Of a stretch of 64,000 bases of DNA, positions 4,497 to 22,073 are shown piece after piece. The translations under genes and the position numbers were made by a program. The DNA comes from an uncultured Chloroflexia bacterium (GTDB taxonomy: Bacteria; Chloroflexota; Limnocylindria; Limnocylindrales; CSP1-4), in assembly GCA_963757055.1 (NCBI GenBank), contig CAVWPX010000007.1, positions 5,618 through 69,617 of the forward strand. The letters are read 5' to 3'. Position 1 is the stretch's first letter; each line of letters opens with the position of its first letter. Under the pieces are notes generated by a model. That model did not search any database. It saw only the letters and a program-made list of their open reading frames with translations, and was not told the DNA's origin.

Positions 4497-5740
4497 TCCC
4501 CGATCGCGATCTCGGCCTCGTGCGCGGCGTTCGAGCGGGCGCGCGCGTCGGCATGGATCGGCAGGGTGCCCAGGGCGGCCAGCACGAACGTCAGGGCCAT
4601 CAGCCCGAAGACGATGGGCACGCCGGTCGCCTCGCCGTAGGTCTGGATCACGATGCCGTACAGCGCCGTCCAGAGCGACCCGATGCCGAAGGCGAACGCG
4701 AAGTAGACCGCGTAGGACGCGTCGCGGATCGACGGCGGCGCGATGTCGCCGAGCAGCGCCTGGAGCTGCGGGCTCTCGGCGAAGCTGAACAGGCCCATCA
4801 GGACGATCCCGGCCCACAGCCAGACGAGCGAGGTCCCGGCCAGCAGGAACACGGCGAACCCGATGGCGCCGCCGAGGTAGACGCCGACGATCAGCGGCTT
4901 GCGCCCGATGCGGTCCGACAGCCAGCCGGCGACGAGCGGCATCGGTACGGAGAAGACGATGAGGGCGCCGTACATCAGCCCGGACGTCGCCTCGTCGAAG
5001 CCGAGGACCTGGGTCAGGTAGATCAGCACGAACAGGTTGACCACGCCGAGACCGCGCCCGCCGCCGCCGAGCGCGGACGTGAGGTACAGCCAGCGCAGGT
5101 CGCGGTCGCCGAAGATCCGCCGGAACGCGCTCCGGACGTTCCCGCTGGCGATGGCCGCGGCGCGGTCCGTGCCGCGCTCCTTGACCAGCAGCAGGATCAG
5201 CACCGCGATGACGATGGCCGGGATCCCGAAGATGACCGACGTCCAGCGCCAGCCGACCAGCGCGATGAGCGGGACGCCGACGATCGCGACGATCACGGTC
5301 CCGACGTTGCCGCCGGCGATGTGGGCGCTGATCGCGAAGCCGCGCCGCTCGGCCGGGAACTGCTCGGCGAGCAGGCCGTTGCCCACCGGGTGCTGGGGCG
5401 ACCCGCCGATGCGCGAGGCGATGTTGGGGATCGCGAAGGTCAGCAGGCTGACCGCGAGCGCCTGGAGCGCGAACCCGCCACCGAACAGGATCCCGCCGGC
5501 CCCGAGCAGCCATCGCCGGGAGAAGCGGCGGGTCAGCCCCGCGTAGCTCAGCTGCACGAGCCCCGACGACACCGCCCCGATCGCGGCGAGGAAGGCGATG
5601 CTCTCGACGCTGACCCCGAACTCCTCGATGAGCTTGAGGTAGATCAGCGGCAGGACGACGGCCTGCGCATGGTTGACCGCATGGGCCACCGAGAGCAGGC
5701 CGAGCGAGCGCATCGGCCGGATCTCGGCCACGTCGTGCAT
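4493..5740 (-). CDS. MFS transporter
   Basis: About 12 hydrophobic segments; motif GWLSDRIGRKP; ORF 4493..5812 with likely ATG at 5740 or 5758. Confidence 0.9.
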   Translation of the reverse strand: MHDVAEIRPMRSLGLLSVAHAVNHAQAVVLPLIYLKLIEEFGVSVESIAFLAAIGAVSSGLVQLSYAGLTRRFSRRWLLGAGGILFGGGFALQALAVSLLTFAIPNIASRIGGSPQHPVGNGLLAEQFPAERRGFAISAHIAGGNVGTVIVAIVGVPLIALVGWRWTSVIFGIPAIVIAVLILLLVKERGTDRAAAIASGNVRSAFRRIFGDRDLRWLYLTSALGGGGRGLGVVNLFVLIYLTQVLGFDEATSGLMYGALIVFSVPMPLVAGWLSDRIGRKPLIVGVYLGGAIGFAVFLLAGTSLVWLWAGIVLMGLFSFAESPQLQALLGDIAPPSIRDASYAVYFAFAFGIGSLWTALYGIVIQTYGEATGVPIVFGLMALTFVLAALGTLPIHADARARSNAAHEAEIAIGD

Positions 5741-19487: not shown

Positions 19488-20440
19488 ATGAGCGCGACCG
19501 TCGACGACACCGCCTTCGCCGCCCTCGCCGAGCCCCATCGGCGCGAGCTGCACGTGCATTCGCTACCGGATGCTCGGCTCCTTCGACGAGGCCGAGGACG
19601 CCGTGCAGGAGACGTTCCTGCGCGCGTGGCGAGCGCGCGAGACCTTCGACGGCTCCGCCGCGTTCCGGGCGTGGCTGTACAAGATCGCGACCAACGTCTG
19701 CCTCGACGCGATCCGGCGCGCCAACCGGCGGCTCCCCTCGCGCTCGCTCCAGTCGCTCGGCGAGATCCCCTGGCTCCAGCCGTACCCGGACGACCTGCTC
19801 GACGAGATCGCGCCCCGCGAGGACGAGCCCGACGCGGTCGCCGTGTCGCGGGAGACCATCGAGCTGGCGTTCCTCGCGGCGATCCAGCTGCTGCCGCCGC
19901 GCCAGCGCGCGGTCCTGATCCTGCGCGACGTCCTCGAGTGGTCGGCGAAGGAGACCGCGGCGCTCCTCGAGATGACGGTCGTCGCGGCCAACAGCGCCCT
20001 CCAGCGGGCCCGGGCGACGATGGCGGCGAACCGGCCGCACGGTCGCGATGGTCCGCCGCCGCCCGTGCCGACCGAGGCCGAGCTGGAGCTGCTCCGGCGG
20101 TCGATCGAGGCGCACGAGCGGGCCGATGTCGCCGCGATGGCGGCGATGCTCCGCGACGACGTCCGCATCGCGATGCCACCGAACCCGTTCTGGTTCAACG
20201 GGCAAGGACGTGTTCGTGCCCGGGCTCGAGGTCGGGATCACCGGCCCGGGCGAGTGGCGGCTCGTGCCGATCCGGGCCAACCGCCAGCCGGCGTCGGCGA
20301 CCTACCTGCGGGAGCATGGCGACACGGTGTTCCGTGCCTTCAAGCTCGACGTGATCCGCTTCGAGGGCGGGTTGTGCGCCGAGGTCGTCACGTTCGGCGC
20401 GTACCTGTTCCCGGTGTTCGGGCTGCCACCGACGCTCTGA
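19488..20440 (+). CDS. ECF sigma factor with C-terminal SnoaL-like domain (SigG/ECF56-like; frameshifts near 19560 and 20210)
   Basis: [63 protein letters not shown].ETA; C-terminal WRLVPIRANRQPA. Confidence 0.88.
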
Positions 20441-20629
20441 CGGGTGGGTTGCGCGAGGGCTATGATGCGTGGGACGGCGCTCCCTCGCGCCGCACCTCCG
20501 TCCCGGTGCTCACGCCACCGGCCCGTGGAGGCAAAGGGGCTCCGCCTCGAGGTCGTGTCGTGTGCAGACCCTGGTCGCTTGGTCCCAGGAGCGTGAGTCC
20601 GGATCGACGGCCGGATGGGAGTCGCACAC

Positions 20630-21352
20630 ATGACCACCGACAAGGCCCGCAAGCGGGCCGTCCGCACCCGGATGCAGAAGACCGGCGAGCGCTATGCCGC
20701 CGCGCGCCGACACGTCACCACGATCGCCGACGCCACGCCGGCGTCGCCGGCGGCACCGGCAGAGGCCGTCGAACCCGCCAAGACCCTGTCCGCGGACCTG
20801 CCGCCGCGGGTCGCCGACCCCGGCATGGCCGAGGACGGGATCCGCAAGGGCACGGGCCAGGGCTGGGACGACTGGTTCCGCGAGCTCGACGCCTGGGGCG
20901 CCACGTCGAGGACCCACACCGAGATCGCCCGCCACGTCGGGACGTCGTATGACATCACCGGCTGGTGGGCCCAGACCGTCACGGTCGGGTACGAGCGGGC
21001 GCGCGGGATGCGCGCGAAGCACGAGACCACGCGCGGGTTCGAGGTGAGCGTCTCCAAGACGGTCGCCGCGCCTCCCGAGGTCGTCTGGCCGGCGGTCGCG
21101 GAGCCCGATCGACGGACCGCCTGGATGGGTCCCGAGAAGCTGGAGGTCCGTGCTCGTGGCTCGAAGGCCGGCGTCCGGATCCGGTTCGACGTCCCCGGCG
21201 ATGGGACACGGGTGGGCATCTTCCTGACGCCGAAGGGCGAGACCAGGACGGTGCTGACCGTGACCCACGAGCGCTTGAGCGGCCCGGAGGCCGTCGCCGA
21301 GCGGCGCGCGTACTGGCGTGAACGTCTGGGGCGGTTGGCCGCCTCGGTCTGA
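20630..21352 (+). CDS. Uncharacterised protein: basic N-terminal arm + DUF4287-like helical domain + SRPBCC-like domain
   Basis: MTTDKARKRAVRTRMQKTGERYAAARRH; TGQGWDDWF...WWAQTVTVGYE; VSKTVAAPPEVVWPAV...LTVTHERL; GGGAG RBS. Confidence 0.7.
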   Translation: MTTDKARKRAVRTRMQKTGERYAAARRHVTTIADATPASPAAPAEAVEPAKTLSADLPPRVADPGMAEDGIRKGTGQGWDDWFRELDAWGATSRTHTEIARHVGTSYDITGWWAQTVTVGYERARGMRAKHETTRGFEVSVSKTVAAPPEVVWPAVAEPDRRTAWMGPEKLEVRARGSKAGVRIRFDVPGDGTRVGIFLTPKGETRTVLTVTHERLSGPEAVAERRAYWRERLGRLAASV

Positions 21353-21412
21353 CCGACGCTCGCCCGCCGGCGACCTCGTGCCGCCGGCGGGCCAAGCCCC
21401 TACAGTGCGCCG

Positions 21413-22073
21413 ATGGCCGCCTCGTCCCGTGCGTTCATCCTGCGCGAGACCCGTCTGCGCCCGGTCCCGGGCGTCGACGCGATCCGGCTCCACCTGGCCG
21501 ACGAGGTCCTGCCGCTCTGGCATGCGGTCCAGCTCGAGACGGGCGACCCCGACACGGCCCTGCCCTACTGGGCCTTCGCCTGGGGCGGCGGTCTGGCGAT
21601 GGCCCGCTATCTGGGCGAGCATCCCGAGGCGGTCGCCGACCGGCGCGTCCTCGACGTCGGCTCGGGCTCGGGGCTCGCCGCGATCGCCGCGATGCGAGCC
21701 GGCGCGAGCGAGACCGTCGCCTGCGACATCGACCCGTACGCGGTCGCCGCGATCCCGCTCAACGCCCGCGCCAATGGCGTGCGTCTCGACACCGTCCGCC
21801 GCGACCTCCTCGACGAGGAGCCGCCGCCCGACATCGACGTCATCCTCGCCGCCGACACCTGGTACGAGGCTGGGCTGGCCCGTCGCGTGCTGCCATGGCT
21901 CCAGCGAGCGCACGCGGCGGGCATCGACGTGCTCGTCGGCGACCCCGGTCGCGCCGACCTCCCGATCGATGCCCTGACCGAGCTCGCGGTCTACGACGTC
22001 CGGACGACGACGGACATGGAGGACCTCAGGCTCACGCGCGGCCGCGTCTACCGGCTCCGCGCGCACGGCCTGA
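21413..22073 (+). CDS. SAM-dependent methyltransferase, lysine-methyltransferase (family 16)-like; 3' end probably frameshifted
   Basis: LPYWAFAWGGGLAMARY, VLDVGSGSGL, DVILAADTWY. As given the ORF runs to 22381, antisense into the channel gene; an out-of-frame TGA sits at 22071-22073. Confidence 0.8.

Follow-up and report, generated by a model that had tools for sequence, protein, structure and literature searches.

A structured leader RNA is linked to an encoded N-terminal peptide

We analysed a 64,000-nucleotide stretch of DNA from an uncultured Chloroflexia bacterium (assembly GCA_963757055.1, contig CAVWPX010000007.1, forward-strand positions 5,618 to 69,617; hereafter the window), in which a gene for a 240-residue protein (20630..21352, plus strand) is preceded by an untranslated leader of about 160 nt (20473–20629). 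Comparison with related loci indicates that this leader belongs to a new class of leader RNA whose strict link to the N-terminal peptide of the protein encoded downstream, which we call the arm, is unusual. Its conserved core, from helix P1 to helix P6 (20473..20605, plus strand), matches our covariance model R1 with 93.9 bits (E 1e-21). As far as our searches show, the comparative evidence places the leader in a structured RNA class that has no earlier description. The original prediction, made from the letters of the window, had proposed a structured cis-regulatory RNA that could not be matched to a named one; covariation in 67 leaders and an empty scan of Rfam 15 agree with this.

Leaders of unrelated protein families align and covary

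A search of 60 related genomes recovered approximately 15 orthologues of the window gene and a second family of approximately 450 residues, which carries BtrH_N and DUF4872 domains and has only its first ~30 residues in common with the orthologues. In both families the upstream 160 nt align in blocks, and compensatory changes are visible. A scan of GTDB, one genome per species, with a DNA pattern of the three invariant blocks (CACGC..GYAAAGGGG..GYGTGRG) gave at least 120 loci. The matches listed include Micromonospora, Nonomuraea, Acrocarpospora, Pilimelia, Pseudonocardiaceae, Solirubrobacterales, Thermoleophilaceae, Thermomicrobiales, Limnocylindria and a Gemmatimonadaceae metagenome-assembled genome.

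R1 was built from 48 leaders, and structure statistics were taken on a model-based alignment of 67. In this alignment 96.1% of cells are paired, compared with 84.2% in shuffles (0 of 500 reach the observed value), and the covariation score is 0.39, compared with 0.07–0.11 when pairing partners are slid. The original prediction had named a conserved structure upstream of homologues as its check; such a structure is present, and 22 of its 32 pairs change on both sides. Model scores on the plus strand are 42–114 bits, against 14–31 bits on the reverse strand. All arm loci fall within the plus-strand range with R1, and chance matches to the pattern (for example in Enterobacter and Stutzerimonas) receive no score. 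The fold of the single window sequence is marginal relative to shuffles (z = −2.0); that the RNA is more than a chance product follows from conservation and covariation over ~115 loci and not from the single-sequence fold.

Scanning positions 20000–21500 against Rfam 15 (cmscan, permissive filters, E up to 10) returned no family match; what was left over was miRNA-like noise at 19–20 bits, against gathering scores of 83–100. A covariation-supported, conserved aptamer fold, a criterion used for riboswitches, was found in the leader. A hidden leader peptide or coding region was rejected: the spacing between conserved blocks takes every value modulo 3, and no frame is kept.

Six helices and a kissing loop–loop contact

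P1 is a hairpin (20476..20491) in which GGCGC (20476–20480) pairs with GCGCC (20487–20491) around a C/U-rich loop, UCCCUC (20481–20486); it is 97.7% paired, and four of its five pairs change on both sides. An invariant AC (J1/2, A20494–C20495) stands ahead of P2 (20495..20531), the helix of CCUCC (20495–20499) and GGAGG (20527–20531) that encloses P3. P2 is 98.5% paired, and its middle pair is UA in 37 leaders, CG in 17, GC in 6 and UG in 5. In P3 (20503..20521), CCGGUG (20503–20508) and CACCGG (20516–20521) close a 7-nt loop, CUCACGC (20509–20515); all six pairs change on both sides, and pairing is 96.7%. P3 is followed by an invariant GCAAAGGGG. The invariant GCAAA linker (20531–20535) leads into the P4 hairpin, GGGGC (20536–20540) with GCCUC (20544–20548), the two together spanning 20531..20548; P4 is 97.7% paired, its outer stem covaries (GGGGAU/AUCCUC, GGGGAAC/GUUUCCCC), and GcAAAGGGg is kept in at least 97% of 66 leaders. 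A variable P5 region (20549..20585) follows. P6 (20586..20602) pairs 20586–20590 with 20598–20602, with one A·G mismatch, around the 7-nt loop GCGUGAG (20591–20597). The unconstrained minimum-free-energy fold of the window sequence recovers P1–P4 and P6, and also pairs 20551–20565 with approximately 20617–20635.

The two 7-nt loops of P3 and P6 are complementary and form a kissing interaction, 99.6% paired over the alignment. The second loop pair (43/200) is UA in 30 leaders, CG in 28 and UG in 6, and is unpaired in 1. There are three compensated versions of the loops, and for two of them the source is loci outside the DNA-pattern search. The pattern fixes five of the seven kissing pairs, so the strongest evidence for the contact comes from loci found by other routes: CCCCAGC:GCUGGGG in L159 and L160, paralogues reached through the arm protein, and CCUGCGC:GCGCAGG in L163–L171, from a Chloroflexota genus reached through the covariance model. 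Judged by sequence comparison, each of these variants is a case of multiple simultaneous compensations. An alternative partner for GCGUGAG, the 3′ strand of P1, was suggested by RNAalifold on a first MAFFT alignment; it was dropped on account of four C–A mismatches, the P3-loop partner fitting every sequence.

This architecture of P1–P6 with kissing P3 and P6 loops takes the place of the simple multi-way junction that had been predicted. The long-range pairing GCTCACGC/GCGTGAGT (20508–20515/20591–20598), proposed there as the helix closing the junction, is real and covaries, but it is the kissing contact. Two of the five proposed stems, GGGACGG/CCGTCCC and GAGGC/GCCTC, are paired in 76.5% of cells in the 67-sequence alignment against 75.2% in shuffles and were discarded. 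The supposed AAAGGGG loop is divided between the conserved GCAAA linker and the 5′ strand of P4 (GGGG), and CCTGG/CCAGG lies within the variable P5 region and overlaps P6. UCCGG/CCGGA does exist (20598..20615; 20598–20602 with 20611–20615, seen in the sequence and when the 3′ tail is folded), but it reuses the 3′ strand of P6 and adjoins the Shine-Dalgarno (SD) sequence, and so is an alternative to P6 and not an additional stem.

RNA and arm occur together in both directions

Among ~115 RNA copies checked, every intact one is followed by an open reading frame (ORF) that begins with the arm. Such an ORF lies just downstream in 43 of the at least 120 pattern loci; among the pattern loci listed, R1 scores only these 43 and L041, L067, L106 and L124, whose arms had been missed at the first screen. 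In the 43 loci measured, the start codon stands 29–37 nt past the P6 loop, except in L031, where the arm is frameshifted. Searches by phylum with the model found the RNA in 11 of 301 Chloroflexota genomes and in 42 of 401 Actinomycetota genomes (~10% of those sampled), at one to three copies per genome; in the genome of the window itself R1 finds one site only. Every one of the 40 loci from these searches is followed by the arm; 39 are new, and one is the Micromonospora reference locus. In the converse direction, 11 of 11 arms found by profile in seven genomes have the RNA directly upstream, and the RNA also precedes two metagenomic arm proteins that differ in their C-terminal part (L204, with a CxxCH motif, and L207, with no Pfam family on record). 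The proteins downstream have unrelated domains and only the arm in common, and they form no metabolism or transport set for a single ligand.

RNA and arm thus look, on this sequence evidence, like a portable module across at least three phyla (Chloroflexota, Actinomycetota and Gemmatimonadota), as had been anticipated: all intact model matches checked lead into an arm, and all of the profile-found arms have the RNA. The setting had been described as high-GC bacteria. The motif is indeed common in Actinomycetota, but the host here belongs to the Chloroflexota, and the phrase does not hold in its actinobacterial sense only.

The exception to an arm directly downstream is in L070 (2078–3100), where a 3′-truncated RNA copy (70 bits; P1–P4 intact, no P6) lies 865 nt upstream of an intact copy. 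Between the two are a small AbrB/MazE-like ORF (2205–2345) and PIN-like fragments in DNA of apparently lower GC content, which looks like a toxin–antitoxin cassette inserted in the leader with duplication of the 5′ part of the leader.

Some genomes carry several copies. Nonomuraea (L157, L159, L161) and Acrocarpospora (L154, L158, L160) have three copies of the module, and the paralogues differ in their kissing loops (CCCACGC or UCCACGC alongside CCCCAGC); the differing loops may keep these RNAs from pairing with one another. L159 and L160 encode a third family of arm-led proteins and have the most divergent leaders (42–49 bits).

The arm is conserved as a peptide

In the window protein the arm comprises residues 1–35 (20630..20734, plus strand). 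The N-terminus reads MTTDKARKRAVRTRMQKTGERYAAARRH from ATG 20630. Across loci the arm has the consensus MTxxKxFKxRVRxRMxKTGExYxxAR, with M1, T2, K8, R12, R14, T18, G19, E20, Y22, A25 and R26 invariant. The invariant residues use varied synonymous codons, and synonymous sites vary freely; selection therefore acts on the arm as a peptide, and its conservation as part of the RNA structure is ruled out.

The AlphaFold2 (AF2) model of the window protein (mean predicted local distance difference test score 89.9) has a basic helix at residues 5–18, a TGE turn, a second helix at 22–35, a disordered linker to residue 66, and then helical and START-like domains. In this model the arm is a confidently predicted helical hairpin on a disordered tether. 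The predicted start at ATG 20630, basic N-terminus and Ala/Pro linker are retained, the linker being the low-confidence segment of the model (residues 36–66).

A profile search of 1.84 billion representatives with the arm returned 4,137 clusters at E ≤ 0.001, 856 of them at E ≤ 1e-10, and in nearly all of the best 150 of the 4,137 the arm occupies residues 1–34. Domains in 60 longer arm proteins are DUF4287, DUF4872, BtrH_N, AHSA1, LRR, peptidoglycan-binding, GerE, alanine-racemase and hydrolase. The proposal that similar arms are joined to diverse domains is upheld by the 4,137 cluster representatives (DUF4287, BtrH_N/DUF4872, AHSA1, LRR, GerE, hydrolase and others). The arm itself had no match in Pfam, NCBIfam, PDB sequences or PADLOC. 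Kinship with ribosomal protein bL34 was considered and rejected; hhalign aligns the expected stretch with a probability of only 4.6%.

The P5 region is more complementary to the ribosome-binding site of its own gene than to others

The SD sequence GGGAG (20617–20621) and the start codon ATG (20630–20632), read from the sequence, form the initiation region of the window gene (20617..20632, plus strand), and 20551–20565 within P5 is predicted to pair with the SD-to-start region. We calculated the duplex energy of each P5 region with the ribosome-binding site (RBS) of its own locus and with those of other loci; this is an energy test, not aligned covariation. Against the RBS region (−22 to +7), cognate pairs average −29.8 kcal/mol and non-cognate pairs −23.5 kcal/mol (p < 2e-4), a cognate gain of 6.3 kcal/mol that holds for the SD/start part alone. 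The two controls give no such difference, with −24.1 (cognate) and −24.4 kcal/mol (non-cognate) for the coding region at +120 to +148 (p 0.69) and −22.3 and −22.2 kcal/mol for the region upstream of the promoter (p 0.41).

On average, the SD is predicted to be paired with a probability of 0.69. In other clades the pairing with the initiation region falls to other sequences; in Micromonospora, GGGAGCAUGUG ahead of the AUG is faced by CACAUGC and CUCC of P5. In many loci the SD has a further possible partner in the 3′ strand of P6, which would then leave its own 5′ strand (UCCCGGU/ACCGGGAG in Micromonospora, for example). The complementarity between P5 and the RBS co-evolves, yet the alternative pairing that would hide the RBS defines no single alignable helix. 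Because this complementarity co-evolves, the leader probably controls access to translation initiation by switching between alternative folds.

Promoter, downstream domains and neighbouring gene

The window is GC-rich. Its TATGAT (20461–20466), named in the original prediction, belongs to a promoter-like site with CTGACG as −35, an 18-nt spacer and TATGAT as −10 (20437..20466, plus strand). CTGACG-18-TATGAT is the sole σ70-like site within 20200–21500, and shuffles gave none. A TAnnnT hexamer lies 7–11 nt 5′ of P1 in nearly all related loci, and from this spacing the leader RNA probably starts at P1. No terminator-like site was found at the locus. Approximately 55 nt upstream of P1, and upstream of the −10 box, five loci (L039, L117, L128, L146 and L149, two of them Solirubrobacteraceae) have a GATGAGTTTC-like element, which may be a further promoter or operator element.

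After the arm and the disordered Ala/Pro linker, the window protein continues with a DUF4287-like helical domain and an AHSA1/SRPBCC domain. The two domains had been named in the original prediction and differ in strength. The DUF4287 (PF14117) match is weak (15.5 bits, E 0.018; below the gathering score of 27 bits); relatives do reach the family (15 of 60, best E 3e-11), so that DUF4287-like is a fair label for this part of the sequence. The AHSA1/SRPBCC (PF08327) match is clearer (26.5 bits, E 8e-6) and passes the gathering score of 22.1 bits. The best matches of the START-like domain in a Foldseek search of the PDB are AHSA1/START proteins (E 1e-5), including CalU16 and DynU16. The START/AHSA1 domain occupies residues 136–239; CalU16 and DynU16 come from enediyne-producing organisms. 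The modelled likeness to these two proteins hints that the domain binds a small hydrophobic molecule.

The upstream neighbour (19570–20440) is a gene for an extracytoplasmic function-type σ factor (Sigma70_r2 and r4_2) with an apparent frame change near 20195–20215; its C-terminal part runs on in another frame to a stop at 20440. A frameshift, a pseudogene or an assembly error may each explain the change.

Arm binding to the leader as the proposed trigger

In the mechanism that we propose, the SD and start region would be paired with P5 and, in many cases, with the 3′ strand of P6, so that the fold of the upstream domain would decide whether ribosomes initiate; the co-evolving complementarity points to this step. 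The trigger would be the arm. The newly made protein, its arm tethered by the flexible linker, would bind the folded leader of its own mRNA and shift the balance of folds, giving autogenous control of translation, whether by repression or by activation, in a module that could be moved in front of any protein. The strict coupling of RNA and arm is what suggests the trigger. Of the triggers considered we favour binding of the arm to its own leader, at slightly less than an even chance, because the controlled genes share only the arm and because the association is near one-to-one over three phyla. The whole proposal is more tentative still: a cassette of promoter, 160-nt kissing-loop leader and 30-residue arginine-rich tag, in which the tag, on the nascent or the finished protein, binds its own leader, would have been placed before unrelated families in Chloroflexota, Actinomycetota and Gemmatimonadota.

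Several points weigh against this proposal. The gene for one arm–LRR protein (L203) has a short leader with no model match. The invariant RNA bases, the AC and GCAAAGGGG, would suit a small-molecule pocket equally well. Where the kissing loops change the arm does not, so any reading of these loops by the arm is not sequence-specific. Nor did the searches described detect a relative of the arm with a known function, the resemblance to bL34 being not significant. Finally, the aligned sequences are related and were partly ascertained by a pattern that fixes five of the seven kissing pairs. In L203 (1–274), ~110 nt separate a TAGCAT box from the start codon, and the only core-like stretch there is GAGGCAAGAGG; this leader may be a reduced variant or a decayed copy.

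A small-molecule or ion riboswitch is the strongest rival, although we consider it unlikely. Junction bases and kissing loops would together make up a ligand pocket, binding there would open or close the RBS, and the arm would have a separate job, for example as a nucleic-acid anchor, and travel with the RNA by adjacency only. The complex fold, its tertiary loop–loop contact and the few invariant unpaired bases are all in keeping with such a device, the predicted RBS-occluding alternative helix resembles an expression platform, and the leader has a size typical of aptamers. The commonest family also ends in START/AHSA1 domains, which bind ligands; CalU16 and DynU16 are among the best structural matches. 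The controlled genes, however, share no pathway (DUF4287–SRPBCC, BtrH_N–DUF4872, LRR, GerE, hydrolase and CxxCH-motif proteins) and have the arm as their sole common feature, and adjacency alone leaves a near-perfect two-way association over three phyla unexplained.

The same strict coupling would be expected if RNA and arm formed a stable ribonucleoprotein with no feedback role, a reading to which we give roughly half the weight of the riboswitch. The arm would then tether the protein to the 5′ end of its own mRNA, or a processed leader would stay on as cofactor or scaffold, in localisation, assembly or protection. The linker that separates the arm from the catalytic or binding domains is long, flexible and tether-like, and different kissing codes on paralogues in the same genome would prevent cross-pairing. 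Against this, the constant spacing to the start codon argues for control of initiation, as does the co-evolving, predicted RBS-occluding helix, and processing or stability of the leader finds no support in this analysis.

It is very improbable that the arm acts as a nascent peptide, its ~30 residues filling the exit tunnel and stalling or slowing early elongation while the leader senses or relays this state. Its invariable place at the extreme N-terminus, its approximate tunnel length and its conservation as a peptide would suit that role. Yet the folded helical hairpin of the AF2 model is atypical of arrest peptides, most of those known have a leader ORF to themselves, and nothing in these data links the fold of the RNA to elongation. 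That the element arose by chance in GC-rich sequence, or is conserved as an operator or promoter in the DNA, would account for a single-sequence fold that barely beats shuffles and for the weak reverse-strand model matches (20–31 bits), but we regard it as next to impossible given the compensatory changes in all helices and in the loop–loop contact, including G–U pairs that make sense on one strand only, the separation of plus-strand from reverse-strand scores, and the fixed position between the −10 box and the start codon.

Relation to known leader RNAs

The element, as we read it, would function as an autogenous translational operator does, and it has likenesses to arginine-rich peptide–RNA pairs such as λ N–boxB, RNA binding by the arm being predicted. 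As in the autogenous operators of ribosomal-protein and phage genes (the S15–rpsO pseudoknot, the L20 leader, T4 gp32 and RegA), a structured leader adjoins the RBS of the gene for the presumed binder, and alternative folds would decide access of the ribosome. That RNA and arm strictly co-occur in both directions agrees with such an arrangement of a leader upstream of its binder, binding by the arm being presumed. Those operators are bound by dedicated RNA-binding proteins, whereas here a 30-residue tag at the N-terminus of unrelated proteins is the presumed binder. Signs that the leader mimics a primary RNA target were not found: R1 has its single site in the genome of the window, and the bL34 resemblance is not significant.

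The pairs λ N–boxB, HIV Tat–TAR and Rev–RRE likewise combine a short, basic, helical N-terminal peptide with a structured RNA on the same transcript. They act on transcription antitermination or export, and their RNA is a small hairpin, in contrast to the 130-nt fold with kissing loops found here; the arm, moreover, keeps one helix-turn-helix-like shape, in which TGE-Y-AR is invariant. Riboswitches with loop–loop contacts (the L2–L3 contact of the purine riboswitch) are alike in their covarying helices, long-range loop–loop pairing, few invariant junction bases and, probably, an RBS-sequestering alternative helix. The leader differs from them in having no Rfam riboswitch match and no common pathway among the regulated genes, and in its strict link to an encoded peptide. 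BglG/SacY-type antiterminators, whose CAT domain binds RAT RNA, offer another small N-terminal module that is joined to other domains and paired with a leader RNA, the RNA role of the arm again being presumed. CAT, however, is a β-stranded dimer that acts on the terminators of target operons and is joined to PRD domains only, whereas the arm is joined to many families.

Our literature search found no paper that links DUF4287, BtrH or DUF4872 to an RNA motif, and the GC-content/intergenic-region (GC-IGR) discovery papers that we examined mention none of these families. To our knowledge, no described bacterial leader is keyed to an encoded N-terminal peptide instead of to gene function.

With its strong covariation, a kissing contact in three versions and its presence in ~10% of the sampled Actinomycetota genomes, the leader is a well-founded addition to the regulatory RNAs of bacteria, and the arm offers a handle on ~4,100 uncharacterised protein clusters. 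If the peptide does bind the RNA, the two would make up a compact, transferable unit of autoregulation, relevant to homeostasis of gene expression and usable as a part in synthetic biology, and would be a natural cellular counterpart of λ N–boxB that works on translation.

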